The notes under the pieces are model-generated. The model was given only the letters and a program-made list of their open reading frames with translations, did not search any database and was not told the DNA's origin. This document shows positions 4,781 through 35,986 of a DNA stretch of 39,801 nucleotides, piece after piece. Source of the stretch: a virus. The translations under genes and the position numbers were made by a program. Location: IMG/VR virus record IMGVR_UViG_3300038559_000036. One strand, given 5' to 3'. How positions within the stretch are numbered: the stretch's first letter is position 1; every line of letters begins with the position of its first letter.

Positions 4781-5053
4781 ATGCTCATGGAAAAAGAACC
4801 ACCACACCCTGGAGAGATATTACTCAGGGAATTTATAGAACCTAACGGCCTTATGCCACACAGATTAGCCAAAGATTTAGGTTGGCCTTATTCAAAATTG
4901 GAAAAGCTTATGGATGGAGAAATAAACCTTACGGTTGATTCTGCCATGGAATTAGCAGAGGTTTTAGATATGGAACCTGATTTTTGGGTAAGCTTACAGG
5001 CCAAATGGAGTAAATGGCATGATAATCAAGCGTTAGTAGACGAGAACCTTTAA
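4781..5053 (+). CDS. higA: HigA-family (XRE-type HTH) antitoxin-like protein, no adjacent HigB
   Basis: PPHPGEILLREFIEPNGL....LAKDLGWPYSKLEKLMDGEINLTVDSAMELAEVL..EPDFWVSLQAKW is the classic HigA/VapI signature. An AGGAG RBS is present. The 200 bp upstream has no ORF that could be higB. Confidence 0.8.
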   Translation: MLMEKEPPHPGEILLREFIEPNGLMPHRLAKDLGWPYSKLEKLMDGEINLTVDSAMELAEVLDMEPDFWVSLQAKWSKWHDNQALVDENL

Positions 5054-5302
5054 CACGAAATATCCGTGTAGTAATGTGAGTATTGTTCCAAACAAATATA
5101 CCACATTTTTTAAGCGCTTGAATCCAGAGGTTATGGCAAACTCAAGGTTTTGAATATGCTCTTTAGTTGCGATAAGACGTAAGTCCGTTTCGCCAGCAAT
5201 TGCTAAATTACGAGCTAACATTTTAGCTTGGTGTTCAGGGAAACCAGCTTCAATAAATTCATCAGTTTTTAATAACATGTTTATTTTCATCCATAAATCC
5301 AC
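5033..5302 (-). CDS. DUF1640-like coiled-coil protein with C-terminal TM anchor (paralogue 1 of 6)
   Basis: EAGFPEHQAKMLARNL...LIATKEHIQNLE followed by the hydrophobic tail VVYLFGTILTLLHGYFVL, the same architecture as five other ORFs in this window. Start is uncertain (ATG at 5302, 5290 or 5278). It is the last gene of the late/lysis operon. Confidence 0.6.
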   Translation of the reverse strand: MDLWMKINMLLKTDEFIEAGFPEHQAKMLARNLAIAGETDLRLIATKEHIQNLEFAITSGFKRLKNVVYLFGTILTLLHGYFVLKVLVY

Positions 5303-5335
5303 TAAATCCGTTTAATGTTCCTCGTGGAACATATA

Positions 5336-5584
5336 TTAATCATCCATAGAATGTTTACTAGGTGGTAATAATTTATCAATATCTATGCCTGTTTCTTTCT
5401 TAACAATTTCTTCTATGACTTCTTCTGCAAATTCAGTACCAGGATTATTAATTTTACCCGTATACCAATAACAAACACCAGAGAAAATAACAGAAAGAAT
5501 GATAATCACGAAGCAAATTACCTTGGTGTTTGCCCCCATAGCAATAACTTTATCAACAAGACCATTAACGCAAGGATCGCTCAT
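5336..5584 (-). CDS. Single-pass membrane protein, holin/spanin candidate
   Basis: 82 aa with one strong TM (VICFVIIILSVIFSGVCYWY) and an acidic C-terminal tail. It overlaps the upstream lysin-like gene by 4 nt. Confidence 0.45.
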   Translation of the reverse strand: MSDPCVNGLVDKVIAMGANTKVICFVIIILSVIFSGVCYWYTGKINNPGTEFAEEVIEEIVKKETGIDIDKLLPPSKHSMDD

Positions 5585-6087
5585 TTTTTAACCCCAACAA
5601 AGTTATTGTAGTTAGTAATATATTCATCAACAGTAGCTTTACCGCCAGCTGTATTATAATATTTTTTATAGTATTCTGCTTGAAGTTCTAAGGTCTTAGG
5701 GATAGGTTCAGACACCCTATGGTAGTATAATCTTGCCATAGCTGTTGCATAATAAAGATTGTATAGCATAATATTAGCCGTTGGGTTATTAGGAACATTA
5801 CAAAAACTTATTATCTTATCTAGTAAATAATGATTAGATAAATTTAGATGTTTCCAAATGTCATCATGAGTGGCTGATTGCATTTGATAAACCCCGACAG
5901 CCAAAATGTTTTTTTGTAATGATGCATATAAATCAGGATTGGTACCTTCTTGAAATAAATATGTACCGCCTCTGGATTCTTGAGCGCAAGTTCCTACAAG
6001 TAAGTCTTCGGCTTCTTGGCTATAAAGATAAATAGCGCGCAATACTGGTTGGATTATTAGTTGTCTAAACTGTAAGTTATTAAACAT
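5581..6087 (-). CDS. Lytic transglycosylase-like endolysin
   Basis: GTCAQESRGGTYLFQ ... AVGVYQMQSATHDDIW resembles the SLT-type catalytic Glu-Ser motif plus the GlyQ(M/I) motif. It sits at the end of the late operon next to a TM protein. Confidence 0.55.
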   Translation of the reverse strand: MFNNLQFRQLIIQPVLRAIYLYSQEAEDLLVGTCAQESRGGTYLFQEGTNPDLYASLQKNILAVGVYQMQSATHDDIWKHLNLSNHYLLDKIISFCNVPNNPTANIMLYNLYYATAMARLYYHRVSEPIPKTLELQAEYYKKYYNTAGGKATVDEYITNYNNFVGVKK

Positions 6088-6448
6088 TATTTAGGTTCCC
6101 TCCCAAGTACTCTGTAACTGCATCCATTGCCTCATCTAAAGAATAGCATACGACAGCTCTGTAGGCTCTGTCATTTAAATTATTAAGCCATATTTTTTGA
6201 TGTTCGGAAAGGCGGCCTGTTTTAGATTTTAATTCTATAAACAACCCATGAAAGCCATTATAAGGCAAGGCCATGAATAGATCAGGTACTCCAGGCGTAA
6301 CGCCTTGCGCCTTGAGGCTTTTAGCCTCAAGACGATTTCTACTCCCCCCATTAGGGATAGCAAAGGTAACAAGACGTAAGCAGGGGTAAAAACACAGCCA
6401 TTCAAAGAAATCACTTTGGATCTTCTTTTCTGGGATCTGTATGCTCAA
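6080..6448 (-). CDS. VRR-NUC domain nuclease (PD-(D/E)xK)
   Basis: GVTPGVPDLFMALP...GLFIELKSKTGRLSEHQKIWLNNL matches the VRR-NUC D...ExK core plus the Q..W tail. Confidence 0.75.
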   Translation of the reverse strand: MSIQIPEKKIQSDFFEWLCFYPCLRLVTFAIPNGGSRNRLEAKSLKAQGVTPGVPDLFMALPYNGFHGLFIELKSKTGRLSEHQKIWLNNLNDRAYRAVVCYSLDEAMDAVTEYLGGNLNNV

Positions 6449-6450
6449 AC

Positions 6451-6696
6451 CTAATTAGCAGCAGGTGTAGCTATAGCCGAGCTTACAGCGTTTACCACGT
6501 TTTCAGTAGTACCTAAAGCAGCATCAACATCACTAATTACAGTACCAACAGTACCAGGAAGTTTCACTGAATTTAACATATCTAAAATAGATTTAGCTTC
6601 TGCTAAACGTCCTACTAAAGCATTGTGATTAGCAGCACTTTGTTCAATAGCCTGAGCTAATTGAGATACGCGTTCAATTAATGATTGCATTGTCAT
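6451..6696 (-). CDS. Hypothetical small coiled-coil protein
   Basis: 81-aa ORF tightly packed in the late operon. No motif recognised. Confidence 0.5.
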   Translation of the reverse strand: MTMQSLIERVSQLAQAIEQSAANHNALVGRLAEAKSILDMLNSVKLPGTVGTVISDVDAALGTTENVVNAVSSAIATPAAN

Positions 6697-6712
6697 AGTT
6701 ATATTTCCTTAT

Positions 6713-6739
6713 ATAAAAATGCCCTCCATCTTGAAGGGC
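6713..6739 (-). terminator. Rho-independent terminator/attenuator candidate
   Basis: On the minus strand, gcccttcaagatggagggc is followed by atttttat. It lies between genes 6752..7531 and 6451..6696. Confidence 0.45.
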
Positions 6740-6751
6740 GTTAATCGATAA

Positions 6752-7531
6752 TTACACGGCAGGCGTTATTGCGATCCAGCTTACGGTAGTTGCAGCACCA
6801 GGATCGGTGCTAAAACTTACTGTTAATGTACCAGCACCTGGAACTACTTTAGTAATTGAAACAGCGTTAGTAGAGGCTAAAATAGAAGCTGTCACTATAC
6901 TGGTTGCTCCAACGTTAGTTGCTGTATAAGCATTGCTTGTACCACCACCTGCGTATGCAGCAGTAGTTGCAGCATGTAATGTAAATCCAGCATCTTGAAT
7001 TGCACCAACCGTACCAGTTGCTTTAACAACATTTCCACTTACTAAAGCACTAGGAGCTAGCACAAAATTAGCTGTTGTAGCGGCTGGATCGGGAATTGTA
7101 AAAGTCCTAACACCAGCTTGTGAGGCATTCGTTATAGTGGCTGCTGTGTTTCCTGCATTTGAGGTGGCAGCTACAACTAAGTTTCCTCTGTTTGCTGTTG
7201 CTGGGAAAGAAATAAAATCACCAGCTACACCGCTCGATCCTGCCTGGACGTTTCCAGCAAAAGAACCACCGGAGCTGGCTGGGGTTACTAAGCTATAAAC
7301 TAAATTAGGCGCAGTTCCTGTAATAGATATAGCTAGCCAAACTGGACCGCTAGTTGTGTTAACAAGGGCTATTTGACCGTTTGATACAGTTAATAGATTT
7401 TCATGAATTGCTTTAGATAAATATCCTGTTGTTGTCACAGTTGCAACAGAGTCGTTAGTATTTATAAAAACTAGATTAGGAATAACACCGGCTAACCCAG
7501 TAACGCTACTTGTAGCTTGTAAAATTGACAT
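6752..7531 (-). CDS. Ala/Thr/Gly-rich virion-associated protein (fibre-like), function unknown
   Basis: 259-aa ORF in the tail-fibre region. Its composition resembles the neighbouring fibre proteins. Confidence 0.55.
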   Translation of the reverse strand: MSILQATSSVTGLAGVIPNLVFINTNDSVATVTTTGYLSKAIHENLLTVSNGQIALVNTTSGPVWLAISITGTAPNLVYSLVTPASSGGSFAGNVQAGSSGVAGDFISFPATANRGNLVVAATSNAGNTAATITNASQAGVRTFTIPDPAATTANFVLAPSALVSGNVVKATGTVGAIQDAGFTLHAATTAAYAGGGTSNAYTATNVGATSIVTASILASTNAVSITKVVPGAGTLTVSFSTDPGAATTVSWIAITPAV

Positions 7532-7578
7532 CTTTGCCCTCCATGGTTTAGATTAATTTATATTTTATTTGGCAGAAA

Positions 7579-7689
7579 CTATTTTTTCTTTTTAGCAGCT
7601 TTACCTATGCGACCTTCCATTTTGCCACCTTTTTTATTCATTTTTTCTTTCTTTTCGTAAGATTCTTCTTTACGTTCGTGCTTTTTCAT
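7579..7689 (-). CDS. Possible 36-aa highly basic peptide
   Basis: Hand translation gives MKKHERKEESYEKKEKMNKKGGKMEGRIGKAAKKKK. An AGGA lies 8 nt upstream. It is below the track cutoff. Confidence 0.3.
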   Translation of the reverse strand: MKKHERKEESYEKKEKMNKKGGKMEGRIGKAAKKKK

Positions 7690-7708
7690 TTTCGATGTCC
7701 TTATTATA

Positions 7709-7936
7709 TTAAAAATAAATTAATCTAAAGTCATTATAGTAAATCTTATACAAACCCCAAAGGTAGTCAAGAGGCCGTTGTTTACTTTTTTGCTTAGATT
7801 TCTTAATAGCCTTTGCTTTAGGCTTTACATGCTGAGGCAGCTTTTTACCTTTAGGGGTGGCAGATTCAAATTCTTTGGCTAATTCAGGATGTTTAGCATA
7901 CATGAATTTACGCTGGGCTTTGGAAACAAATGGCAC
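7709..7936 (-). CDS. Small basic protein (SKAQRKFMYA motif), unknown function
   Basis: 75-aa ORF. I recall the N-terminal MPFVSKAQRKFMYAKHPELAKEF motif from small phage proteins. Confidence 0.5.
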   Translation of the reverse strand: MPFVSKAQRKFMYAKHPELAKEFESATPKGKKLPQHVKPKAKAIKKSKQKSKQRPLDYLWGLYKIYYNDFRLIYF

Positions 7937-7946
7937 TTTAATTCTC

Positions 7947-8327
7947 CTATGAAGCTGTAGTTGGAACTGCTACCCAAGACTTAGTTGTCTCATCCCAGAT
8001 ATATAGATTTCCATCAGTAGGATAAGGTGTTGGAGGTGTCCAAGTCCAGTTTGGGGTAGCAATAGTCCAACTTGGGTAAGGCTGTGGCGGATAAAACACA
8101 TCATGGGTTGAATCATATGTATAGCCAATTCCTGCATAATTTCCTCGTAAAGGAGTGCCGCCATCCGGGATATCACTGTTTGGCGCATAATGATTGCCAC
8201 CTCTCGTATTATAAGAGGTTTGGATCCATGAACCAGGACTAGTATCCACGAAAGTATTAAAAAATGCAGCATCAGCCACAATAACCTGGGTTACTATTCC
8301 ATTAACTACTTTTGCGTAATGAGACAT
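7947..8327 (-). CDS. Conserved phage protein, Trp/Pro/Tyr-rich (fibre-associated?)
   Basis: 126 aa. The N-terminus MSHYAKVVNGIVTQVIVADAAFF is a pattern I recall from many phage hypothetical proteins. It lies directly downstream of the large fibre gene. Confidence 0.6.
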   Translation of the reverse strand: MSHYAKVVNGIVTQVIVADAAFFNTFVDTSPGSWIQTSYNTRGGNHYAPNSDIPDGGTPLRGNYAGIGYTYDSTHDVFYPPQPYPSWTIATPNWTWTPPTPYPTDGNLYIWDETTKSWVAVPTTAS

Positions 8328-8340
8328 TAAATTATTCCTT

Positions 8341-12864: not shown

Positions 12865-12883
12865 AAATTAATCCCTTAATAAA

Positions 12884-13327
12884 TTAAGTTACCACCCAAT
12901 TTCCTTGTGGTGCGCCTAAAAGTGTAAAGTTATTATTAGTAACGCTGCATACTAAAGTTAGGGAATCACCAATATTAGATGATGCAACAGAACCACCAGC
13001 ACCTAAAGTTGATGCAATGTTACCGAATTGAATTTGTTGTCCTGCATTTTGTGCTATCGTAACGGTGAAAGTCGAGAGGTTTATAATTTGTAAGACTTGC
13101 CCAACAACTGCAACGGTAGGAAGTGTATAAATAGCATTGGCAGTGTTTGCTAGAAAATAGCCATTATTAATAACCAAAACTTGTCCAACAGCTAAAGTAG
13201 CCCAAGGAAGAGCTGCAAATGCTTGAGCATTAAATATGGTATTAGCACCATTTCTTAAGCCGACAACAGTATCACCAGATTCGGCGACCGTTGTAACAGG
13301 ATTAAATTGACTAAATTTTGTAGACAT
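12884..13327 (-). CDS. Tail-fibre-like protein
   Basis: The N-terminus MSTKFSQFNPVTTVAESGDTVVGLRNGANT resembles fibre N-termini. It sits between two large fibre/spike genes. Confidence 0.55.
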   Translation of the reverse strand: MSTKFSQFNPVTTVAESGDTVVGLRNGANTIFNAQAFAALPWATLAVGQVLVINNGYFLANTANAIYTLPTVAVVGQVLQIINLSTFTVTIAQNAGQQIQFGNIASTLGAGGSVASSNIGDSLTLVCSVTNNNFTLLGAPQGNWVVT

Positions 13328-13330
13328 TTA

Positions 13331-15821: not shown

Positions 15822-15925
15822 ATTTAGAATCCTTTCTTTGCTGTGGCATCCGTTGCTTTGCAGTTTTTAGTATAGTAAAATTTAAGAATATAACTACTAT
15901 AAATTTGCATGGGGATATACAATAA

Positions 15926-16237
15926 ATGACTAATACAGCGTGGCAATACTATAAAGATTTAAAGGCTGGCGGAGTGCCAGAAGAACAGGCAGTTGCAGAA
16001 ACGGATGCTTTAAATGTGGCAGTACAAGGCTTGGATAACAAAATTGATCAAGTTAAAGACGAATTAAAAGCCGATATAAAAGATGTAAAGGCCGAGATTA
16101 AAGCATTGAGAACCGAATTAAAAGCCGATATAAAAGATGTTAAAAGTAGCACTAACAAAATATTCTATACCATGATTAGTGCGATGCTTGTGTTTATTGT
16201 AAAAACAGTTGTAATGTTTTGTATACATGGAAGATAA
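15926..16237 (+). CDS. DUF1640-like coiled-coil protein with C-terminal TM anchor (paralogue 2 of 6)
   Basis: YYKDLKAGGVPEEQAVAETDALN, an internal ELKADIKDVK repeat and the hydrophobic tail IFYTMISAMLVFIVKTVVMF. It is on the opposite strand to the structural operon. Confidence 0.7.
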   Translation: MTNTAWQYYKDLKAGGVPEEQAVAETDALNVAVQGLDNKIDQVKDELKADIKDVKAEIKALRTELKADIKDVKSSTNKIFYTMISAMLVFIVKTVVMFCIHGR

Positions 16238-16301
16238 AACCCTTGACCTACCCATCGGCTTAAGGTATAGTTAATTGGTAAACTAATTGGGGGATGTGCA
16301 A

Positions 16302-16550
16302 GTGGCCAGTATAGATACATTGCAAGCATATGAAAATTTAGTTGCTTCTGGGATTCCAGAACAACAAGCAAAGGCGCAAGTTCATTTATTAAATGGATCG
16401 CTGAGCGATTTAGCAACTAAAGATGACTTAAAGATGCTAGAAAAAGATTTAAAATACTTTTTTATAAATTCTTTTGTGGGATTTATATATGCCCCAGTTA
16501 TTGTGGGAATTATAATTGCTTTAATCTTAAAATGGTTAGGAAAGTTTTAA
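16302..16550 (+). CDS. DUF1640-like coiled-coil protein with C-terminal TM anchor (paralogue 3 of 6)
   Basis: (M)ASIDTLQAYENLVASGIPEQQAKAQV...DLATKDDLKMLEKDLK followed by a TM tail. A GTG start at 16302 is preferred over the track start because a GGGGGA RBS lies 7 nt upstream, as in the paralogues. Confidence 0.7.
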   Translation: MASIDTLQAYENLVASGIPEQQAKAQVHLLNGSLSDLATKDDLKMLEKDLKYFFINSFVGFIYAPVIVGIIIALILKWLGKF

Positions 16551-16643: not shown

Positions 16644-16650
16644 AATATTA

Positions 16651-25663: not shown

Positions 25664-25693
25664 TTGTAAAACCCGTACGGATTGTAGTATAGT
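25664..25693 (+). promoter_or_regulatory. Promoter candidate for yefM (TTGTAA-18-TATAGT)
   Basis: Hexamers read by eye at 25664..25669 and 25688..25693. It contains the GTAGTATAGT motif also seen upstream of two other plus-strand accessory genes. Confidence 0.3.
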
Positions 25694-25719
25694 TGGGATT
25701 GCTATTGTGGAGGTTTTAT

Positions 25720-25974
25720 ATGACAATTTTAAGCGTAAGTGCTGCAAGACAAAATTTATATAGTTTGGTTAATGAAATATCTGATGGGCATAAACCGATT
25801 TATATTAAAGGCAAAAAAAGCAATGCCGTATTGGTATCCGAACAAGAATGGAATAGCGTAAAAGAAACAGCATATCTTATGAGCAGCCCCTATAATGCTT
25901 TGGCTTTGATGAAATCAATTAAAGAAATAGAAAAAAATACACGCAAGAAAAAATCTAAAAAATGCCTAGCATAA
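25720..25974 (+). CDS. yefM: Phd/YefM-family antitoxin, no cognate toxin gene downstream
   Basis: MTILSVSAARQNLYSLVNEISDGHKPIYIKGKKSNAVLVSEQEWNSVKETAYLMSSPYN is the classic YefM signature. A GGAGG RBS lies 7 nt upstream of ATG 25720 (the track start at 25693 is a TTG extension). Only 138 non-coding bp follow before relB. Confidence 0.8.
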   Translation: MTILSVSAARQNLYSLVNEISDGHKPIYIKGKKSNAVLVSEQEWNSVKETAYLMSSPYNALALMKSIKEIEKNTRKKKSKKCLA

Positions 25975-26070
25975 TTTGCTTTAAAAGTATACGGCGAAAA
26001 AACGACCAAAAACTCCTCTTTTTTGATCCAATTTTTTATGTGCAAAAAGAGGTATATCTTTTGCTATAGC

Positions 26071-26090
26071 TTTGGTATACTTTGGTATAC
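26071..26090. promoter_or_regulatory. Operator candidate for RelB: tandem TTTGGTATAC x2 (each with GTATAC palindrome)
   Basis: Read directly, with a third related copy (atgttatac) following. It lies 23 bp upstream of the relB ATG. Confidence 0.45.
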
Positions 26091-26112
26091 ATGTTATACG
26101 GGGCGATACATT

Positions 26113-26325
26113 ATGCTTGCTATTAGAATTTCAGAAGATTTAGAACAACGCTTAACTAGACTGTCCGAAAAAACAGGTCGCACTAAAAGCTATTATGCTA
26201 GAAAAGCCATCCAAGAATTTATAGAAGATAGGGAAGATTATTTATTGGCAATTAGCGTGCTAGAACAAAAGAACCCTACTATATCTTTGGATGAATGGAG
26301 CAAAAAGAATGGTTTGGATGATTGA
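26113..26325 (+). CDS. relB: RelB/ParD-type ribbon-helix-helix antitoxin
   Basis: MLAIRISEDLEQRLTRLSEKTGRTKSYYARKAIQEFIEDRED shows a beta-strand then helix RHH pattern. It overlaps the downstream toxin gene. Confidence 0.8.
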   Translation: MLAIRISEDLEQRLTRLSEKTGRTKSYYARKAIQEFIEDREDYLLAISVLEQKNPTISLDEWSKKNGLDD

Positions 26326-26575
26326 ATTAGACAAAAAGGCCGTGAAACAATTGGACAAATTAGGGAAGCCAGCACAAAAACAAATAAGGGACTTTTTAGC
26401 GAATAAAATTAGGAGACTTAGTAACCCTCGCAGACTAGGTAAGCCCCTAAGTGGAACCCACAAAGGATTATGGAGCTATAGAACTGGGGTATATAGAGTT
26501 GTGTGTGAGATAAAAGACAGTACGTTAGTAGTAATTGTGGTTAATGTTGGACATAGAAAAAGCGTATATAGTTAA
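26309..26575 (+). CDS. relE: RelE/ParE-family toxin
   Basis: LGKPLSGTHKGLWSYRTGVYRVVCEIKDSTLVVIVVNVGHRKSVY is the RelE signature (G.YR...I.....V..VGHR..VY). A GGAG lies 8 nt upstream of ATG 26309. ATG 26318 is an alternative start. Confidence 0.85.
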   Translation: MVWMIELDKKAVKQLDKLGKPAQKQIRDFLANKIRRLSNPRRLGKPLSGTHKGLWSYRTGVYRVVCEIKDSTLVVIVVNVGHRKSVYS

Positions 26576-27650: not shown

Positions 27651-27654
27651 TTTA

Positions 27655-27816: not shown

Positions 27817-28858
27817 TCGCTATCCTTTTAATCGCAATATCCATATATTCCTGTTGCTTTTCAATTCCTATGAACCTAAATCCCTCTAGCTTAGCAGCAA
27901 TTCCAGTTGAACCGCTGCCCATAAACGGATCGAGTATAACGCCATTAGGCGGTGTAACTAGTCTACATAAGTATTGCATTAATTTAATTGGTTTTACAGT
28001 GGGATGATTGTTATGTTGGCCTCTTTCTGCGGACGACGCTTTAGCACAATAGAAAAAGCGGGACGGCGAACCTAAACTTGCTTCTACCTCTTCGCTACCA
28101 TCGTGGATAAAGTTTGCTGGAAAACGGCCTGACACGGTCGATTTAAATTGCCTTGACACCCAATTATCATCGTGCATAACCCCTAAAGTTTTCATACTTT
28201 GATACGTTCTAGTTTCTGTTCCAACCCGACACCCATCGATATTAATCCCGCCAGTACCATGTTTTAGCACGTTACTTGCTATATTCTTTTCGCTTAGTGG
28301 TTTTCTTGCCACAATTATTGGCTCGTGTGCTGGTTTTAATTGAGAACCCCAGCCATCCCACTTTTTGGCATCGTATGTTGGCGGCGTGGTTATGTTAATA
28401 TCAATCCTTTCTTTAAGCTTGCTTTTTTCACTGCCAAACCCAGCGTTCCCCTTTATATCTTGGCTACTTTTTAAAACGCCTATAACCTCTCTTTCAGCAC
28501 CAGCCATCTTATCGATAGCCTTGCTAACATTTAAGTTTTTAGGAAAACCGCTTCCATAAACCCACATGATTTGATCCCGAATTTCAAACCCGGCATCTTC
28601 AATTGCACAGGCCATCCTATGATAAGTGCGGCTACCGCCGAACGCTAATAAATGGCCACCTGGCTTTAATACCTCTAGGCATAGTTTCCATAACTCGACA
28701 TCATTAGCAATGCCAGACTTATCCCAGCCTTTGTTCATAAACCCAAGTTCATACGGCGGGTCAGTAACAATTGCATCTACCTGTTGACCCTTTGCAATCA
28801 AATCCCTTATCGCATCTTTACAATCCGACAAGACGCAGACATATCCCTTGTCTAACAC
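27806..28858 (-). CDS. Orphan beta-class N6-adenine (or N4-cytosine) DNA methyltransferase
   Basis: Motif IV AIVTDPPYELGF lies near the N-terminus and motif I VILDPFMGSGSTGIAA near the C-terminus, which is the permuted beta-class order. DPPY favours N6-adenine. No restriction endonuclease gene is adjacent. Confidence 0.9.
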   Translation of the reverse strand: MLDKGYVCVLSDCKDAIRDLIAKGQQVDAIVTDPPYELGFMNKGWDKSGIANDVELWKLCLEVLKPGGHLLAFGGSRTYHRMACAIEDAGFEIRDQIMWVYGSGFPKNLNVSKAIDKMAGAEREVIGVLKSSQDIKGNAGFGSEKSKLKERIDINITTPPTYDAKKWDGWGSQLKPAHEPIIVARKPLSEKNIASNVLKHGTGGINIDGCRVGTETRTYQSMKTLGVMHDDNWVSRQFKSTVSGRFPANFIHDGSEEVEASLGSPSRFFYCAKASSAERGQHNNHPTVKPIKLMQYLCRLVTPPNGVILDPFMGSGSTGIAAKLEGFRFIGIEKQQEYMDIAIKRIANDN

Positions 28859-30963
28859 TATTCTTCCCTATGTTTGTGGGCTATTTCTGCACTTTTAATT
28901 ACATGCTCCACCGCAGTTCTAGCATTTTCGGAATCAACCTTTTCTTGCTCAATTCCAAGTTTGATTTGGTTCTGATTAATTTGCGCCATAATCTGCATAA
29001 ACTTAACATCAGTTAAGGTCTTCTCATTAGCAACTTTAGCAGCTTGGATAGCTAGCTCTCCTTCTTGTTTTTGTTGTTGTTGCTGAATCTTAGCCATCTC
29101 AATTTGTTTAATGGCCTCAGTTTGCTCACGCATTGCGGTTTCTTCAGGATTGCCTTGCTGTGCTTGTTGTTGTTTTTGTTCTTCTAATTGCTTCATAAAC
29201 TGAACGGCTTGAGCCTTAAGCCCCTCAATACCTCTAATGTCCATGTTATCTAGAATTGTTTCTAGCCCCATAGTATTAATAAACTCAGCAAACAATTGAC
29301 TGGACTGCATCATTCTAATTATTTGATCAAGCGCTACTTGTTTTTGTACTGCGCTACTAACCCCTGCTTCAACCTTAATCTGTAAACTATTTGGGTTGTA
29401 ACTAAAGTCTACGCTTTCAGGATTATTTGGGTGATTAATAATTTGGTAAGAGCGCTTACCGTCAGGCGCCTTTACTGGTAAGCTTCTAGGCGTTACATAA
29501 TACTTAGGAATTAAGTCAACAACTATTTGGGCAACCCTATTTAAGCCTCTAATATAGCCCTGTAAATAAGGAATGGCCGCAGCATTAGATTGCATTGCTC
29601 CTTGCTGTATGGCGACCCCTGATATTTGCTTATCGTTAGTTCCTAATATGGAATCATACGTACCTAATATAGTTTGGGTAACCTGATCGGTCCCCATAAA
29701 AGTCATATTAACAATGTCGGGAGTAGGGGTTCGTTGAACTTCTCTTGGGGGCGGTAATGGTTGCTCTGGATTATCTTTATAAAATGCGTTATAAACCAAC
29801 GTAGATGCTTGCTGTACGTTTTTATAAGCGTCCGCATAATCCTCTGGTATAGACTCAACTGCTACCATAAATTTATGTTGCACCATGTTTTCAATTTCGG
29901 CAGCAACGGTCTGTCCTGAGAAGTTTTTAAGTTGTTGCACACCTTTAGCATGATAAACAAAAGGCCTGGTCATCTGCATTGATGCATCATCTTCGTTTTC
30001 TCTAATTACCACACTATTGCCATCAATAAATACTAACGGGAAGAACTTATAGGATGTTTCTTCGTGAGACAGTACTTTATCTTCACAAACCATATAGCGA
30101 TCAATTGTTTCGATAATGGTTTCTCTTTCATCTATAAGAATGGGGGCTTGTTCAATAAACCCTTGATTACCCCATAGTTTAAGGAATTCCTCATAATGTT
30201 TTTTAACAATAGTATGGCCGTTAGAAAGTTTTACGATCTTCTCTTTCTTCTTTTTCTTGCAGTAGTAATCGGCAACCAGTATGATTTCTTGATCTTGATT
30301 TAAATAGCTCCAATTAAAATCGCCTACATGGCTCGATCTTTCAAACTTCATATTGTCGGCCGAGCCTTTACCGAATTCTTCTTCAAAATCTTCTTTTGAT
30401 TTAGGGATTAACTGAAAGCAGTAATTACCATCGCCCTTATGTGATTCTCTGGCTAACGGATCGAAGCCAGTTAAAGTTGGATCGAATACTCGCTCTACTT
30501 TAATATTTTGCTCAAAAGATAGCTCGTTAATGTAGCCTGTATAAACGTGGACAACACTATAACCACCAGCTAATAAGTCTGAATAAATGTTATACTCTAG
30601 TGCATCGTTGGAGGCGTCAAAGAAAATCTCTCTTAAATGCGCCTCTATTATTTCTAATGTTTGTAAAAATTCTGGGGTTAGCTCTTCAATTCGCACACCG
30701 TCGGCAGCTCTTGCCACTATTGATGGTTCTTGTTTCGCGAACTCGCCTCTTAGCCTTGAAATCATCGCTTCTAAGATGTTAAATTCTATTGCAGGTTTTT
30801 GTAGCACATCTAATTTAGTGATGTCATCGGACGATAACGAAGTCTGGAAGACAAACTTCATAAAGTCATTAAAGCGATTAACATTCTTTATAAAATATTC
30901 GTGCGCGTGCTCAATATTTTTCTTGATTTCGTTTAACTTATCCGTGTGCTTTTTAGCTACCAT
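28858..30963 (-). CDS. Portal protein (P22-like, with long Q-rich C-terminal coiled coil)
   Basis: 701 aa, in the terminase-proximal position. The C-terminal ~120 aa (QLEEQKQQQAQQ...KIQQQQQKQEGELAIQAAK) resembles the P22 portal barrel. Confidence 0.75.
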   Translation of the reverse strand: MVAKKHTDKLNEIKKNIEHAHEYFIKNVNRFNDFMKFVFQTSLSSDDITKLDVLQKPAIEFNILEAMISRLRGEFAKQEPSIVARAADGVRIEELTPEFLQTLEIIEAHLREIFFDASNDALEYNIYSDLLAGGYSVVHVYTGYINELSFEQNIKVERVFDPTLTGFDPLARESHKGDGNYCFQLIPKSKEDFEEEFGKGSADNMKFERSSHVGDFNWSYLNQDQEIILVADYYCKKKKKEKIVKLSNGHTIVKKHYEEFLKLWGNQGFIEQAPILIDERETIIETIDRYMVCEDKVLSHEETSYKFFPLVFIDGNSVVIRENEDDASMQMTRPFVYHAKGVQQLKNFSGQTVAAEIENMVQHKFMVAVESIPEDYADAYKNVQQASTLVYNAFYKDNPEQPLPPPREVQRTPTPDIVNMTFMGTDQVTQTILGTYDSILGTNDKQISGVAIQQGAMQSNAAAIPYLQGYIRGLNRVAQIVVDLIPKYYVTPRSLPVKAPDGKRSYQIINHPNNPESVDFSYNPNSLQIKVEAGVSSAVQKQVALDQIIRMMQSSQLFAEFINTMGLETILDNMDIRGIEGLKAQAVQFMKQLEEQKQQQAQQGNPEETAMREQTEAIKQIEMAKIQQQQQKQEGELAIQAAKVANEKTLTDVKFMQIMAQINQNQIKLGIEQEKVDSENARTAVEHVIKSAEIAHKHREE

Positions 30964-31068
30964 TTGAAATCCTTTTCTGGTGGTTGAACTACTTAGATAG
31001 ATACATTCCTTATATCTAAGTTTTTAGTATAGTAAAATCTAAGGAAATAACTATAAATGGGGATAAGA

Positions 31069-31305
31069 ATGGCACACATAGATACATTACAAGTATACAA
31101 AGAATATTTATCTGGGGGCTACACAGAAAGCCAAGCAATTACGGCTGTAAAGGCCTTGAATGCCTCATTTGACGGCGCAGCCACTAAAGAAGATTTAAAT
31201 AGCCTAGAAAAAAGAATAGATTCAAAGTTTGATGCTAAGTTCGGTATGCTAGAAAAAGCCTGCATAGCAATAATTGTGCTGCTTCTGAAGGTAGCTTTTT
31301 GGTGA
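31069..31305 (+). CDS. DUF1640-like coiled-coil protein with C-terminal TM anchor (paralogue 4 of 6)
   Basis: MAHIDTLQVYKEYLSGGYTESQAITAVKAL...AATKEDLNSLEKRIDSKFD followed by the hydrophobic tail. A GGGGAT RBS lies upstream of ATG 31069. Confidence 0.7.
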   Translation: MAHIDTLQVYKEYLSGGYTESQAITAVKALNASFDGAATKEDLNSLEKRIDSKFDAKFGMLEKACIAIIVLLLKVAFW

Positions 31306-31306
31306 T

Positions 31307-31459
31307 TCATATTTTTTCCCTATGGTTGCCTCTAGTGGCTTCAATCCGTTGATCTATCCAGTTGTCTACCTCGCTCTCAAGCCAGCCAACCGATCTGGCT
31401 GAAAGTTTTATAGGTTTAGGGAAAACACCTTTAGAGACTTTTAAATAAGATACCGAACC
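31307..31459 (-). pseudogene. 5'-truncated/frameshifted AlpA-like HTH gene remnant
   Basis: A 50-codon open frame reads GSVSYLKVSKGVFPKPIKLSARSVGWLESEVDNWIDQRIEATRGNHREKI. This is the AlpA C-terminal two-thirds, but there is no start codon. The only upstream ATG (31485) is in another frame and stops after 14 codons. Confidence 0.5.
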
Positions 31460-31527
31460 CTATTGTTCTTTATAATAGGGTTCATAAAGCCATAACGCAT
31501 TGAAAATTAAGGAAATTAAGGTAGACT

Positions 31528-31704
31528 CTATTGTTTTTTGGGAGATCCTTTTTTTGCCCATTCTGGCCTAATAAAGCTAGCCATGCGCTTTGCTGTAGTT
31601 GGGTCAAATTCTTTATTACTTAACCAATCAATTACATCTTGATTCCTTGGATGCTGTTTTTCTTAGTACAGGCTCAGCTTAGATAATGTTTTATATTCTT
31701 TCAT
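31528..31704 (-). pseudogene. Small ORF interrupted by an in-frame TAA at codon 14
   Basis: Hand translation gives MKEYKTLSKLSLY*EKQHPRNQDVIDWLSNKEFDPTTAKRMASFIRPEWAKKGSPKKQ. The stop codon lies at 31663..31665. Confidence 0.3.
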
Positions 31705-31725
31705 TGTACAAAAATGGATAACCAA

Positions 31726-31862
31726 TTTCGTACAATTAAACGATGCTTTTCGTACAATAATTAAGGTTTTCGTACAATTCTTTATCGTTTTCGTATTATG
31801 GATAACAATTTTCGTTAAAGTTGTGCTATTTTCGTACAATTATTTAATTAATTTCGTACTAT
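31726..31862. repeat. Iteron-like array: 7 direct copies of TTTCGTACAAT-like 11-mers spaced 20-22 bp
   Basis: Copies start at 31726, 31748, 31768, 31789, 31810, 31830 and 31852. Four are perfect through TCGTACAAT and three are degenerate. TGGATAAC(C)AAT also occurs twice, at 31714 and 31798. Confidence 0.9.
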
Positions 31863-32104
31863 AAATTGTTATTTTTAAAAAATTTATTTGCACTAGAAAA
31901 CTTCCTGTTCAGATTTTCTACTGACAAATTTTCTTTTTCAGGAAATTTATTTGCAATATCATCAATTAGTTTATTTTGAGTTTTATAAGGGGTAATACTA
32001 TTATGTTCATCATGTCCTTTTGATATTAGCACACGTAATAAGCTGCCTATATGGTAATCATATATTTCTTTCTCCTCCACGTAGGAGCCCAGCTTTTTGA
32101 ACAC
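31859..32104 (-). CDS. Hypothetical 81-aa protein in accessory insertion
   Basis: ORF only, Lys/Asn-rich, no motif recognised. Its stop overlaps the last iteron-like copy. Confidence 0.4.
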   Translation of the reverse strand: MFKKLGSYVEEKEIYDYHIGSLLRVLISKGHDEHNSITPYKTQNKLIDDIANKFPEKENLSVENLNRKFSSANKFFKNNNL

Positions 32105-32129
32105 ATCAACATTTGACTCTAATGAGTTA

Positions 32130-32252
32130 TAAATAGCCTAGAAAAAAGAATAGATTCAAAGTTTGATTAAAGTTATGATTACAGTATAATTTATTTGATG
32201 TTCTTTATTAGCCGTTAGTAGTTCTGCAAAAACACTAACGGTAGCTTTTTGG
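32130..32252 (+). pseudogene. Duplicated 3'-end fragment of the DUF1640-like gene at 31069..31305
   Basis: 32130..32167 is a perfect 38-bp copy of 31196..31233 (encoding NSLEKRIDSKFD), followed here by an immediate stop. GGTAGCTTTTTGG is also repeated, at 31290..31302 and 32240..32252. Confidence 0.7.
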
Positions 32253-32258
32253 CCTTAA

Positions 32259-33818
32259 TTATTTTCTAGACCTCCTAATGGCTGTCAGTTTAGTATTAAA
32301 ATCTTGCGCCAATGATTTAAGTATTGGTGCGCTTGGGTTTGGCTGTTCCCTAAATGCCGTAACAGGATAAGCAAAAGTTAAACAAAGCGCGTCCGCTTCG
32401 TCTGACGACCTGATTCCCCTCTTTTTCATATCTTCCTTTTTCTCCATAACCAATCTAGAGTTGGAATCAAAACTATAGCGTATACCGCATAAATCTGCAT
32501 GTAAGCTGTCTACATCTGGTATTTGTACTGGGATATCCTCTAGCCAATTGGCGCACTTACCCCACATCTCAGCACGCTTATTTGAATACTTCTGGTCGTC
32601 TAAGCTTTTTGAACCAGCGTTAACCGCAACGACAGCCTCCTTGTGGCCTAATTCATTAAGCCTGTCGACAACACCAGCTCCCAATCCGCCGACATCAACA
32701 AACACCTTTAAAGGCCGATGCTGTTCAATCAATGAATGAACAATGCCAGTTACCTCCATTGTGTCTTTCTTGGTATAGCTTTGTAATCCAAATGCCACAC
32801 GGCCTTGCCTAAAGATTATTGAAGTGCGATCATCACCAAATCGGGCAGGGTCAACCCCCATAATTAAAGGGCCGTATTTCTCTGCCGTTTCTTTTCTCGC
32901 TCGCATTACTATTGATGAATCGATAAATGAATTCTCGCCTTTAAGTTGGAAAGCCTCATTTGGATTGCATGGATATTCCTGGCAAAAGCTTTTCTCCCCG
33001 TCTTGACCGTTAACTGATAAATCAGTAATTTTAAATCGCCGCCAGGCTATCTGCTCTAAGGTTAACCGATAAGCTTCAATTAAGCGTAACTCTATATGAT
33101 TAGGTTTAAAGTCCGGCGACGTTTGTCTTTTATATTCGTCTTGCCAGAACCATGGAACAAAGATAGCTATAAAATCAGACATGCCGCCCTCTGCTTTTTG
33201 CCACATCTGATGAAAGTAATTACCAACCCCGTTAGCGGTTGATTCCAATATGATCTCTGTTCCTGTTGCGTCTGGCACGGCTTGCAGTATACCTTTAGTA
33301 TGCTCGTGAGCATTTGCCCAAAAGGCAATCTCAGAGCCATGGAATAATTGAATAGTACTGGAGCGCCCAACCGCTTTATTTTCGGCTGTTCCTAGTTTAT
33401 ATCCGCTATCTAACCGCCCAAAGATAAGCTCTTTAGAGTTGTTGGTGCTAATATCAGGCTGAACTAAGTTTGGGGTATTCTGATAAAACCGCTGCGCCAT
33501 CTTAAATAGATTATTGGTAGCATCTAATGCATGAGTTAAGATAAAGCATTGTGTCCCCTTATTATGCGTTGTTTTATGGTAGTATCTGCCGCCAACATAC
33601 GTACTGCATCCTTGTTGTCTTCCTTTCAAGATCAGTGCTCTAACTCTACCTGTTTGTCTTCTTTGATCTTCTAATCGCTCATGTATATACTGCTGCGCTT
33701 TATTTAAGACAAACGGCGCAATCTCACCTTGCTTAGTGCGGATTTTAAGACAACGCGAAGCATAATGTATAAAGTTGTCTTTTAAAAGTTGGCGTGTCTT
33801 AATCTCGTCATCAGTCAT
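32259..33818 (-). CDS. terL: Terminase large subunit
   Basis: 519 aa with the Walker A-like ILKGRQQGCSTY and C-terminal nuclease-type acidic motifs (VFVDVGGLGAGVVDRL, SSDEADAL). It overlaps the upstream gene by 8 nt. Confidence 0.85.
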   Translation of the reverse strand: MTDDEIKTRQLLKDNFIHYASRCLKIRTKQGEIAPFVLNKAQQYIHERLEDQRRQTGRVRALILKGRQQGCSTYVGGRYYHKTTHNKGTQCFILTHALDATNNLFKMAQRFYQNTPNLVQPDISTNNSKELIFGRLDSGYKLGTAENKAVGRSSTIQLFHGSEIAFWANAHEHTKGILQAVPDATGTEIILESTANGVGNYFHQMWQKAEGGMSDFIAIFVPWFWQDEYKRQTSPDFKPNHIELRLIEAYRLTLEQIAWRRFKITDLSVNGQDGEKSFCQEYPCNPNEAFQLKGENSFIDSSIVMRARKETAEKYGPLIMGVDPARFGDDRTSIIFRQGRVAFGLQSYTKKDTMEVTGIVHSLIEQHRPLKVFVDVGGLGAGVVDRLNELGHKEAVVAVNAGSKSLDDQKYSNKRAEMWGKCANWLEDIPVQIPDVDSLHADLCGIRYSFDSNSRLVMEKKEDMKKRGIRSSDEADALCLTFAYPVTAFREQPNPSAPILKSLAQDFNTKLTAIRRSRK

Positions 33819-34128
33819 CGTATGACTTATTGTTTTTTTCGTCCATCATTTTATCATTCCATTTATACGAAGCTTTTTTCCGTAAACTCTTTATAGCGTT
33901 ATCTCTAATTTGAGACGGCCTCGACCAGCTCACTCCAAACGTAGTGGCTATTTCTCTAAAAGTTAAGCCGTCTCGATAAAAAAAGTTTATTACCTGCTGC
34001 TGCTTAGTTGGTAATTGTTTAATATAATCTGGCAATTCTGTTACGGTTATAAGTACACGCCCTTCAAAGTTACCGTTAATTAGCTCTAATAATCGCTCAA
34101 AGCTATGCGAGCGCACACTATAGTTCAT
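33811..34128 (-). CDS. Sigma-70 region-4-like HTH protein (late regulator or packaging accessory)
   Basis: QQQVINFFYRDGLTFREIATTFGVSWSRPSQIRDNAIKSLRKK is a typical region 4.2 / LuxR-type HTH. Confidence 0.55.
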   Translation of the reverse strand: MNYSVRSHSFERLLELINGNFEGRVLITVTELPDYIKQLPTKQQQVINFFYRDGLTFREIATTFGVSWSRPSQIRDNAIKSLRKKASYKWNDKMMDEKNNKSYDD

Positions 34129-34400
34129 CTTTTATCCCTTGTTATTGGTGCTTGCTTTTGATGGGATTCGTGTTTTTTACGTATTAATTGTAATCTTTTA
34201 ATATTCTCTTCTAAAGTAAAACAGCTCGCCAAACTAAAGGCCAATCGTTTTGCTTGCTCTATCTTTTTTGCTAATTTATTAAAACACTCCGCTGTATACC
34301 CACATCCTGTAAGTGGGCTTATATTTTCTAGCGTTTCCTCTATCTCATAGAGGTTTTGTACTATTTCACTTACCAAATCACTTGCATTTAATTCACTCAT
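34125..34400 (-). CDS. Hypothetical protein
   Basis: 91-aa ORF with 4-nt overlaps on both sides. Confidence 0.45.
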   Translation of the reverse strand: MSELNASDLVSEIVQNLYEIEETLENISPLTGCGYTAECFNKLAKKIEQAKRLAFSLASCFTLEENIKRLQLIRKKHESHQKQAPITRDKR

Positions 34401-34594
34401 TCTCTTAACACTCCTTCTAACTTTTGTTTAAATTCTGCCAAAGTAATTGGCGTTACATCAATGGTGCTTGGTGTCATAAACTCGTAGAACATTACAGCTA
34501 ATGCATAAAAGTCTCCTGGAGTTAGCGCATCAAATTCTTTGTTGTTTATAATAGGCGGCCAATTCGGTCCTTGCAGATCTGGTAATGGCCTCAT
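34397..34594 (-). CDS. Hypothetical protein
   Basis: 65-aa ORF with 4-nt overlaps on both sides. Confidence 0.45.
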   Translation of the reverse strand: MRPLPDLQGPNWPPIINNKEFDALTPGDFYALAVMFYEFMTPSTIDVTPITLAEFKQKLEGVLRE

Positions 34595-35079
34595 TTCAAA
34601 AGCTCCAGCGCATCCTCATGTTTAATATTAACTGTTGATTCGCTATGAACTCTGTCGCCATAAATTTTTGGTATTAGTTTTGATGTTAACCATTTACGAG
34701 TGTCAACTCGTAGTCTTGCGTGTTGTATTTCTTCACTAGTAATTTTTGGTTCATCACAAATATCTATAATTTGTTCTGCGAATAGATCGGCCTGAATAAG
34801 TTTAGCCTGTGCGTAGCGTGCAGCAAATTCTGGGTAATTAAAGCGCCATTCCATAAGGGTTTGGCAACAAGGAAAGTCTGGATTTGAATCACACATTCTG
34901 CGCATACCATCTGTGCAAGTGGATACCTTGTGGCAAATTTTATTTGCTAATGCTTCCGTATAATTTGTTGGTCTGCCAGGAGTGTGTTTACTTTTTACGC
35001 TTAGCTTGATTGTGGGTAGTTTTGCTATCTGTTTTTTTAACTTCTCGCGATTCTTCTCTTTTTGCGTCATTGGTGACAT
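34591..35079 (-). CDS. terS: Terminase small subunit
   Basis: GRPTNYTEALANKICHKVS...TLMEWRFNYPEFAARYAQAKLIQADLFAEQIIDICDE...RLRVDTRKWLTSKLIPKIYGDR matches the widespread TerS pattern (GRP..Yt.e.a..IC ... W......F...Y..A......d......D.......R...D.rKW..sK..PkkYGd). Confidence 0.7.
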   Translation of the reverse strand: MSPMTQKEKNREKLKKQIAKLPTIKLSVKSKHTPGRPTNYTEALANKICHKVSTCTDGMRRMCDSNPDFPCCQTLMEWRFNYPEFAARYAQAKLIQADLFAEQIIDICDEPKITSEEIQHARLRVDTRKWLTSKLIPKIYGDRVHSESTVNIKHEDALELLK

Positions 35080-35254
35080 CCTTGTCTATTGTTGGTTTAA
35101 CTTCCCCATCATTTAAAGTAATGCTATCGCCACTCCATGGCTCGTCTGGGGTTTTTTCTAAGCCTGTGCCTTTACAGATGCCGCATTCACCCATTATCAT
35201 CCCTAGTTTCATAATCTTTTTATTGCCGTTACAGGCTGTACATCTGCGCTTCAT
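34988..35254 (-). CDS. Small zinc-finger protein (DnaJ-type CxxCxGxG x2)
   Basis: CTACNGNK and CGICKGTG motifs lie in the first 35 aa. The C-terminal 30 codons overlap terS in another frame. Confidence 0.5.
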   Translation of the reverse strand: MKRRCTACNGNKKIMKLGMIMGECGICKGTGLEKTPDEPWSGDSITLNDGEVKPTIDKDVTNDAKREESREVKKTDSKTTHNQAKRKK

Positions 35255-35289
35255 AATATGAACCTCCTTGTTATATTATAGTTTATTAA

Positions 35290-35688
35290 TCATTTACAAA
35301 GCATGCCAATTATTCCGCCTAAACCAGCTATTAAAAATGCCATAATCCAACGGTGGTTAATGCTCATCTCGCTTCTAAGTAAACCAATTTCTGTTTTTAA
35401 GTCTTGTCTTGCTAAATCAAATTTAGAGTCAGTTCTAGTTTCCAGATTGGCAATATCTTGTCTTGCTAAATCAAATTTAAAGTCAGTTCTAGTTTCCAGA
35501 TTGGCAATATCTTTTCTAACTAAATCAAATTTAGAGTCAGTTCTAGTTTCCAGATGTTGTAAATATTCTTTAGTTGCCAAATGACTAATAGCATTATCAA
35601 ATGCCATTGCTTGATTAAATGCTTGTTCGTCTGGTATTCCTGCTTTAACTAATTCATGGTAATAAACTAATGCGTTTGATGTTGCCAT
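35290..35688 (-). CDS. DUF1640-like coiled-coil protein with C-terminal TM anchor and 18-aa tandem repeats (paralogue 5 of 6)
   Basis: MATSNALVYYHELVKAGIPDEQAFNQA...HLATKEYLQHLE, then ETRTDSKFDL(V/A)R(K/Q)DIANL about 3 times, then the TM tail IMAFLIAGLGGIIGML. ATG 35688 is preferred because it has the same GGGGGATTGAAT leader as paralogue 6. Confidence 0.75.
   Translation of the reverse strand: MATSNALVYYHELVKAGIPDEQAFNQAMAFDNAISHLATKEYLQHLETRTDSKFDLVRKDIANLETRTDFKFDLARQDIANLETRTDSKFDLARQDLKTEIGLLRSEMSINHRWIMAFLIAGLGGIIGMLCK
35403..35554. repeat. 54-bp tandem repeat, 2.8 copies, inside paralogue 5
   Basis: Units start at 35403, 35457 and 35511. Read directly, with a few substitutions. Confidence 0.9.
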
Positions 35689-35704
35689 ATTCAATCCCCC
35701 TTTT

Positions 35705-35986
35705 TTATATTATCCTAAAGTACTTTAAAACGATGGCCACAATAATAGGTAATATAAATCCTACTAATAATGTGCTTCCTAAGGAATACACGAAGAAAAT
35801 TTTTAAGTCTTTTTCTAGCATTTGTAATCCATTAGTAAACTCATTTTTGGTTAATAATAAATCTTCTTTGGTTACTAAATCAGAATGATAAACTCCTAAG
35901 GACTTTACCGCTGTCATTGCCTGAGCCTCAGTATAACCACCTTCTAAGTATTCTTTGTACATTTGTAATGTATCTATGTTTGCCAT
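35705..35986 (-). CDS. DUF1640-like coiled-coil protein with C-terminal TM anchor (paralogue 6 of 6)
   Basis: MANIDTLQMYKEYLEGGYTEAQAMTAVKSL...DLVTKEDLLL followed by the TM tail LLVGFILPIIVAIVL. It is nearly identical at the N-terminus to paralogue 4. Confidence 0.75.
   Translation of the reverse strand: MANIDTLQMYKEYLEGGYTEAQAMTAVKSLGVYHSDLVTKEDLLLTKNEFTNGLQMLEKDLKIFFVYSLGSTLLVGFILPIIVAIVLKYFRII

Follow-up and report, generated by a model that had tools for sequence, protein, structure and literature searches.

The stretch of DNA analyzed here (IMG/VR record IMGVR_UViG_3300038559_000036; hereafter the window, meaning all of its 39,801 nucleotides) is the complete genome, ~39.8 kb, of a P22-like tailed phage with plasmid-type maintenance genes. 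It carries six small open reading frames (ORFs) whose products share a conserved N-terminal head, a coiled-coil stalk and a C-terminal hydrophobic anchor. We denote the copies f1 to f6 by position and the places that they occupy in the genome as slots S1 to S5. Slot S5, where the late operon ends, holds the most divergent copy, f1 (5033..5290, minus strand, 85 aa). The genes for a lysozyme-like protein and a small transmembrane (TM) protein come immediately before f1, and the TM segment of f1 spans residues 66-84. Slot S4 holds f2 (15926..16237, plus strand, 103 aa), with a stalk of KADIKDV heptad repeats, and f3 (16302..16550, plus strand, 82 aa, GTG start), with a minimal stalk and an anchor bearing an A-P-x-I-V-G motif; both are antisense to the late operon. 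Also antisense is f4 (31069..31305, plus strand, 78 aa) in slot S2, between the portal and large-terminase genes. The last two copies stand in tandem on the minus strand in slot S1, upstream of the small-terminase gene and on the operon strand: f5 (35290..35688, 132 aa), the stalk of which contains three 18-residue repeats, and f6 (35705..35986, 93 aa). The original prediction, made from the sequence alone, had given these coordinates and translations correctly, including three copies on the opposite strand inside the structural operon. Only the start of f1 needs correction: it is likely the ATG at 5290, as called in metagenome relatives, and not the GTG at 5302.

The six ORFs are true paralogues. 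Pairwise phmmer comparisons (Z=1000) link f3, f4, f5 and f6 at E-values from 1e-6 to 5e-15 and tie f1 and f2 to this group at ~1e-5. In leave-one-out searches, a hidden Markov model (HMM) of five copies was compared with every one of the 523 stop-to-stop segments in the window. The sixth copy was recovered every time (4.9e-5 for f1, 3e-8 for f2, and 1e-14 or better, down to 3e-19, for the other copies), and nothing besides family copies scored below E=1 among these segments. All six proteins carry a Kyte-Doolittle hydrophobic (TM) segment at the extreme C-terminus, as had been proposed. Five of them bear a relaxed A-T-K motif, of which the 34,000 translated residues contain just one further instance, in the frame antisense to f6. 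The conserved head motif lies outside the coiled coil. A single-sequence word-indexed search with f6 found only f6 itself.

The A-T-K motif marks the neck between head and stalk. The consensus [aliphatic]-A-T-K-[polar]-[D/E] makes a beta-layer in trimeric coiled coils, and prokaryotic and mitochondrial DUF1640 membrane proteins bear it where the stalk starts (Hartmann et al., PMC4786415). The string LATKEDL, which the original prediction had assigned to the coiled coil, is this motif. Its strict form is seen in f3 (the canonical LATKDD) and f4 (AATKED), relaxed forms in f6 (LVTKED), f5 (LATKEY) and f1 (IATKEH), and a degenerate form in f2 (LDNKID). An AlphaFold2 (AF2) monomer model of f3, based on a 138-sequence alignment (predicted local distance difference test score, pLDDT, 89.3), has head helices at residues 6-15 and 20-34; after an interruption at the neck, a single long helix (40-78) extends through stalk and anchor. 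The architecture of the family is thus a two-helix head, a beta-layer neck, a coiled-coil stalk of variable length and a C-terminal transmembrane helix.

Five of the six copies, all except f1, consistently match PF07798 (CCDC90-like, formerly DUF1640) at sub-threshold scores of 13.0-18.3 bits, and their heads align to model positions 1-34. At E<=1e-3 an exhaustive profile search yielded 1466 cluster representatives, with lengths of 75-130 aa in almost every case. PF07798 is matched by 48 of the 138 best relatives at E<1e-3 (best E 1e-12), and most of the 120 relatives listed carry a precomputed PF07798 assignment, with NCBI names that include 'CCDC90 family protein' and 'DUF1640 domain-containing protein'. 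Against the PDB, the family profile matches 6H9L (E 8.8e-6), the structure of an ATKEDI-repeat protein from a prokaryote, weakly 5APZ (Tcar0761), and human CCDC90B (6H9M) at E 6.6e-4. The latter match covers profile positions 7-67, that is head and neck, and includes the 'DT..l..L...G....qA' motif. The sub-threshold matches, the assignments of the relatives, the structure matches and the motif together suggest that the six proteins are a short, divergent branch of DUF1640, namely a minimal branch of the MCUR1/CCDC90B family. The label 'DUF1640-like' given originally stands at this profile level, through the relatives and through 6H9M and 6H9L.

Membership in several other families was tried and rejected. 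XhlA, which the original prediction had listed for HMM searches, is approached by f2 only, at 15.2 bits (E 0.024) with a cut-off of 34.7 bits. The copies are not i-spanins (Rz-like): all six have their TM helix at the C-terminus, a partner lipoprotein was not seen, and the sole Rz-like PHROG match covers coiled coil only. Holin models score below their cut-offs. The f3 anchor, ending in IYAPVIVGIIIALILKWL (16480-16550), scores 22.2 bits (E 9.2e-5) with the Fst type I toxin model NF033608 (cut-off 26) and 19 bits with PF13955 (cut-off 36), below both cut-offs, and an Fst/Ldr type I membrane toxin is matched by 2 of the 138 relatives. The same anchor type also occurs in S2 copies of relatives and might be membrane-active.

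Relatives of the phage were collected by searches with the family itself, the 698-aa protein and the portal, and then scanned with the family HMM. Estimates of the ratio of nonsynonymous to synonymous substitution rates (dN/dS) from orthologues and paralogues in these relatives are 0.04-0.06 for f1, 0.14 for f3 and 0.22-0.29 for the other copies, with dS of 0.17-2.3. The copies are protein-coding genes under purifying selection, and f1 is ~95% identical in relatives. Phages with portals at least 92% identical carry 5, 6 or at least 6 copies, and the window has six plus a remnant (a range of 5-7). More distant relatives (portal identity below 75%) have 0-1 copies in the 12-22 kb sampled, and phage APSE-2 has two. 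Repeated duplication and retention, as originally proposed, are borne out by these numbers, and the remark that six copies in 40 kb is very unusual for a phage was reasonable.

In the close relatives the copies always occupy the same five slots: S1, upstream of the small terminase, on the operon strand, with 1-2 copies; S2, between the large terminase and the portal, antisense, with 1-2 copies; S3, between a 66-aa gene and the scaffold gene, antisense, with 0-1 copies; S4, between the genes for 504-aa and 698-aa proteins, antisense, with 0-3 copies; and S5, after the lysozyme-like and small TM-protein genes, on the operon strand, always with one copy. Slot S3 holds a family copy in relatives. 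In the window it is occupied by a Phd/YefM antitoxin gene followed by a ribbon-helix-helix (RHH) antitoxin and ParE toxin pair (25693..26575, plus strand, antisense inside the late operon), which makes S3 a slot for accessory cargo. No recognizable toxin gene is adjacent to that Phd/YefM gene. The same anchor, head and repeat types are found in different slots of different genomes, showing that heads, stalks and anchors recombine between slots.

Another kind of variation affects stalk length. The f5 stalk is encoded by three tandem 54-nt repeats (35402..35563, minus strand; 100, 98 and 83% identity), and f5 orthologues have one, two, three or four copies of the 18-residue unit, corresponding to 96, 114, 132 and 150 aa. 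Orthologues of f2 have 110 aa, one heptad more than the 103 aa of the window copy, and one S2 copy contains three 11-residue units. Stalk-length polymorphism is observed among otherwise near-identical genomes, and reading frames are kept through the changes of repeat number. Units of 7, 11 and 18 residues are all compatible with coiled-coil periodicity, so the register is presumably preserved. As far as the literature that we searched shows, such a multi-slot, recombining and length-polymorphic expansion has not been described.

Several copies have expression signals of their own or share leaders. A ribosome-binding site of the GGGGAT type precedes five of the six copies, in line with the original count of 'most'. 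The two pairs of shared leaders reported originally are both confirmed. The leaders of f5 (35683..35712) and f6 (35981..36010), both on the minus strand, have ~30 nt in common, including GGGGGATTGAATATGGCAA, with a GGGGGAT ribosome-binding site. A 35-nt element lies upstream of f2 (15862..15896, plus strand) and f4 (31019..31053, plus strand); the two copies are 91% identical, and their 18-mer core occurs exactly twice in the window. As this 18-mer has no further copies, it is not a general late-promoter motif. The element is located in divergent intergenic regions (15822-15925 and 30964-31068) that also precede opposite-strand genes, the 698-aa tail gene and the portal gene, respectively, so it could regulate transcription in either or both directions. 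A promoter-like sequence, TTGACC-17-TATAGT, is found upstream of f3 (16243-16271), and a terminator-like hairpin lies inside the last codons of f4.

The seventh, 3' fragment noticed originally proved real. It is a decayed 3' pseudogene (32125..32256, plus strand), the remnant of a second S2 copy, with the head and start absent and an in-frame stop. Its bases 32125-32167 are 95% identical to f4 positions 31191-31233, and its 3' end, GTAGCTTTTTGGCC through TAA, matches the '...AFWP*' end of a copy in a relative. Relatives have two intact copies in S2 where the window has f4 and the remnant. Between these two lies an insertion (31306..32124, no strand assigned) with an AlpA-like C-terminal fragment, ~7 TTTTCGTACAAT repeats and an 81-aa ORF. 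An intact AlpA gene is present in the gap between f4 and the large terminase in some relatives. At the same place contig L001 (13894-19050) has a PriCT/Toprim/AAA_25 primase and a second Sf6-type small terminase; this gene set resembles a phage satellite, and it could also reflect a chimeric assembly.

The neighborhood of f1 resembles a lysis cassette. Two minus-strand genes (5336..6087) precede f1: one, at 5581-6087, encodes a lysozyme-like protein of 168 aa, and the other, at 5336-5584, a TM protein of 82 aa. The 168-aa protein belongs to phrog_3108 (annotated 'unknown function'), and its Glu37 is invariant in 31 homologues. Its AF2 model (pLDDT 92) has TM-scores of ~0.8 to unnamed viral proteins and weak fold matches to GH19 chitinases, endolysins and SLT transglycosylases; a sequence search against the PDB was uninformative. 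In unrelated phages the homologues occupy lysis-cassette positions, encoded just upstream of terminase genes, beside small TM or coiled-coil proteins. By its modeled fold, the 168-aa protein looks like a member of an unannotated lysozyme-like endolysin family. The two genes may form a lysis cassette, with f1 as its most conserved neighbor. On the other side, a HigA-like helix-turn-helix gene (4781-5053) convergently overlaps the 3' end of f1.

The family is not limited to the close relatives of the window. A tblastn search of phages with f3 gave no match. With a consensus head-plus-stalk peptide as query, the family is detected in phages of Bordetella avium, in the APSE phages of Hamiltonella and in a Megaira phage, whose copy is already annotated as 'CCDC90-like domain-containing protein', as well as on Arsenophonus, Geobacter and Burkholderia plasmids. 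APSE-2 (NC_011551; our L033) has two plus-strand copies (31521-31916 and 35764-36162) that match the family profile at E 3e-17 and 3e-18, respectively. Both are unannotated in RefSeq and antisense to the flanking early genes. Similarly, the copy in Bordetella phage IFTN1 is the sole plus-strand gene within a minus-strand block. Chromosomal homologues are found in non-phage contexts and often form tandem pairs, which recall the yeast proteins Put6 and Put7, a hetero-oligomeric, matrix-facing pair (PMC7519068). One chromosomal relative of the family sits in a low-GC gammaproteobacterial metagenome-assembled genome from the SPRUCE peatland.

The genome that carries the six copies has a minus-strand late operon that runs through the small terminase (34591-35079), a sigma-r4-like protein, the large terminase (32259-33818) and a P22-type portal (28858-30963). 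These are followed by a DNA methyltransferase, scaffold, major capsid and Hc3-like head-closure proteins, and then by unassigned proteins of 281, 314 and 504 aa, the 698-aa protein and a 1507-aa glycine-rich protein. Besides the Phd/YefM antitoxin and RHH-ParE genes of S3, the window encodes a ParA-like ATPase, an HTH_36/DnaD-like replication initiator and a RecE/RecT-like pair; no integrase was recognized among its genes. A megablast search with 20 kb of the window gave no matches in cultured phages. By tblastn the portal matches P22-like podoviruses of Xylella, Vibrio and Pseudomonas at only 22-25% identity, and the same search of plasmids gave no match. Contigs near-identical to the window come from many metagenomes. 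Scans of the window for tRNAs and Rfam families gave no results.

Three further features of the genome concern its maintenance and variation. A 136-nt unit is repeated three times in tandem at 39403-39801, and bases 1-119 repeat it again with 100% identity. Repeats that bridge both ends of the window fit a circular assembly broken inside an iteron-like array, near the HTH_36/DnaD-like initiator (38405-39124). Directly downstream of the ParA-like gene, a 477-aa ORF (3149-4582, plus strand) contains ~35 copies of an 11-nt tandem repeat (GGAGTCAAAGT / GGAGTCAAACT) at 3487-4063. The counterparts of this ORF in relatives have 477 or 488 aa or are split, so the length of the array varies. The array may be a centromere (parS-like) that overlaps a ParB analogue, the latter having no Pfam or PHROG match. 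Finally, the large terminase of the window has 519 aa, and its orthologues in several near-identical contigs (L003, L008 and L010) carry an intein (PF14890) and have 786 aa, which is an intein presence/absence polymorphism.

We favor, with a probability of about 0.55, the interpretation that the six proteins are functional paralogues of the DUF1640 branch that recombine in five slots, with moron-like antisense copies and a lysis-linked f1. We infer the following about how the proteins assemble, how they lie in the membrane, when they are expressed and what they do. The proteins would be tail-anchored in the inner membrane, with the head and stalk in the cytoplasm and few residues beyond the anchor; this topology is suggested by homology with the matrix-facing yeast members (PMC7519068). 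The beta-layer neck would nucleate a trimeric coiled coil, and homo- or hetero-trimers are therefore predicted. The stalk would set the distance between head and membrane, and the head could bind a membrane-proximal partner. In this lineage of phage-plasmids, which bear ParA, Rep and toxin-antitoxin genes, copies are gained and lost across slots, and stalks lengthen or shorten by units of 7 or 18 residues. Copies f2, f3 and f4, the antisense ones, would be independent transcription units, expressed while the late operon is silent. They would be membrane scaffolds made in lysogeny, and their favored role is a carrier-state function at the inner membrane, for example exclusion of related phages or modulation of a host membrane complex. 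It fits such carrier-state morons that the copies are antisense, have promoter- and terminator-like signals of their own, can be replaced by a toxin-antitoxin module and show a pattern that is seen again in other temperate phages. Copy f1, in turn, probably takes part in lysis control, judging by its neighbors. Of the functions that the original prediction had suggested (superinfection exclusion, membrane remodelling or lysis timing), gene position thus lends indirect support to exclusion for the antisense copies and to a lysis link for f1 only.

Several points weigh against this interpretation. None of the six copies reaches the Pfam gathering score for PF07798 (33.5 bits), and the proposed family membership draws on transitive profile evidence and weak PDB E-values. 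A Foldseek search of the PDB with the f3 model gave nothing below E 1.7 and is uninformative because the fold is too simple to discriminate. Lysine and arginine residues that follow the anchor could be read as a sign of the opposite topology, with a periplasmic head. The moron pattern does not extend to all copies, given that those in S1 and S5 have the orientation of the late operon. The lysozyme-like identity of the 168-aa protein comes from fold matches at E 0.15-6 in the PDB. The PADLOC models of anti-phage defence gave coiled-coil noise for f2 only and no match to a known defence or exclusion system. The DUF1640/CCDC90-like family is conserved across bacteria and the mitochondria of humans, yet the role of MCUR1 is still under dispute and none of the prokaryotic members is known to have an established function; homology therefore gives no mechanism.

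In a second interpretation, all copies would be components of lysis timing, either XhlA-like holin-associated or antiholin-like proteins or membrane-active effectors, several versions of which would tune lysis. The position of f1 directly after the lysozyme-like and small TM-protein genes agrees with this, as does that of f5 and f6 just upstream of the small terminase, where P22/lambda-like phages such as APSE-2 hold lysis genes; the 22.2-bit match of the f3 anchor to the Fst model and the weak XhlA match of f2 point the same way. However, both scores are below cut-off, and the TM helix is at the wrong end for a spanin. Three copies run antisense to the late operon, so that their expression would be low at the time when lysis is set. 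A toxin-antitoxin module can take the place of the family copy in S3, as expected of accessory cargo, and the chromosomal homologues have non-phage contexts. We regard a common role in lysis timing as unlikely.

The original prediction also called the proteins Bdr-like, after the Bdr proteins of Borrelia. As true Bdr homologues, the six copies would serve maintenance of the plasmid-prophage or tether the replicon to the membrane, which we find very doubtful. The two groups have a like architecture, with a small conserved N-terminal region, a stalk with variable repeat number and a C-terminal hydrophobic anchor. Both also form several paralogues on ParA-bearing prophage-plasmids, some with their own promoters: cp32s have a bdr next to the partition locus and, in many cases, a further one under its own promoter, f1 lies ~450 bp from the par locus, and Bdr is associated with the inner membrane. 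The shared C-terminal anchor and multi-copy occurrence on a prophage-plasmid are likenesses of architecture and context and not evidence of homology. Sequence comparison gives some contact, since the KID-like 11-residue repeats of P0044, a member of the family, match Bdr (BLASTP E 5e-17), and f5 and one other member weakly touch Bdr_N_group1. However, the P0044 match lies in the repeats, so its significance is inflated; f5 scores 16 bits (E 0.0077) with the Bdr N-terminal models (NF040499 and NF040500), below the cut-off of 40 bits; and, in a census with NCBIfam models, only 2 of the 138 relatives match the Bdr N-terminal models at E<0.01. The KID repeats (PF02524) are matched by none of the six copies at E<=1, whereas cp32-1 Bdr itself scores 70.6 bits. 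Comparison of the family profile with cp32-1 Bdr by hhalign gives a probability of 6%, aligning only stalk and anchor, and hmmsearch finds no significant domain. In addition, Bdr proteins lack the A-T-K-x-D neck, and cp32 has one or two copies per replicon versus six in the window. The hhalign and hmmsearch results and the census rule out Bdr homology as a demonstrated relationship, and the Bdr-like description is kept as an analogy of architecture and genomic setting. Among analogues of the family Bdr comes closest, and given the P0044 repeats it may be distant kin.

The idea that the similarity is compositional, or that the ORFs are relics or promoter-terminator filler, draws on the long lists of weak, spurious coiled-coil matches that short, coiled-coil-rich, hydrophobic proteins attract and on the one demonstrably decayed copy, and it is refuted for practical purposes by leave-one-out recovery without false matches among 523 segments, dN/dS of 0.04-0.26 with dS up to 2.3, a head motif outside the coiled coil, an f6 protein 99% identical on 22 contigs, and frames kept through repeat changes.

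The interpretation as recombining, functional paralogues of the DUF1640 branch can be extended. The family may be a phage-borne, recombining repertoire of inner-membrane head-on-a-stalk proteins that act in phage-phage conflict, so that heads, anchors and stalk lengths (the last in steps compatible with a coiled coil) would be shuffled under diversifying pressure. Candidate roles would be to block or license DNA entry or to guard a host membrane complex, and Bdr and the APSE antisense genes would be instances of the same system. This extension is speculative and distinctly unlikely at present; if true, it would provide the first function for prokaryotic homologues of MCUR1 and CCDC90B. The phage clade itself is a compact genetic system, with 5-7 small paralogues in defined slots, natural stalk-length and module variants, one copy at the putative lysis cassette and others that are moron-like. 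The analysis also connects the family, in a concrete and testable way, with the Bdr proteins of Borrelia prophage-plasmids, which have long been unexplained, and draws attention to two genes that lack annotation in the APSE phages, well-studied phages of aphid symbionts. Should the copies prove to be exclusion or membrane-modulating factors, they would represent a new class of phage accessory protein.

Among known systems, the DUF1640/CCDC90-like proteins (PF07798; human MCUR1 and CCDC90B, yeast Put6/Put7; structures 6H9M and 6H9L) share with the window copies the A-T-K-x-D neck, the stalk, the C-terminal TM anchor and probably the head, and paralogue pairs are common in both. The window copies are shorter (78-132 aa, compared with a model of 175 positions), are phage-borne, occur as 5-7 copies per 40-kb genome and have modules that are shuffled between slots. 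The Tcar0761-type alpha/beta coiled coils (DUF3782; 5APZ) have the A-T-K-[polar]-[D/E] motif in 14 consecutive nonads, but lack the DUF1640 head; in f5, the latter half of the repeat unit, DLARQDIAN, is similar to the Tcar0761 nonad MATKDDIAN, a likeness of sequence only. XhlA (PF10779), the holin-associated protein of the PBSX-type lysis cassette, is likewise small, with an N-terminal coiled coil and a C-terminal TM segment, and its setting matches the position of f1; however, it comes from Gram-positive phages and has neither the head nor the neck motif. Prophage morons and exclusion genes in late operons include the P22 sieA/immI region, lambda bor and HK97 gp15. They are not known to have sequence similarity to the window family and, like its antisense copies, are single genes with their own signals, antisense to late operons or forming islands in them. 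Slot S4, between the putative ejection and tail genes, presumably corresponds in gene order to the sieA/immI region of P22.

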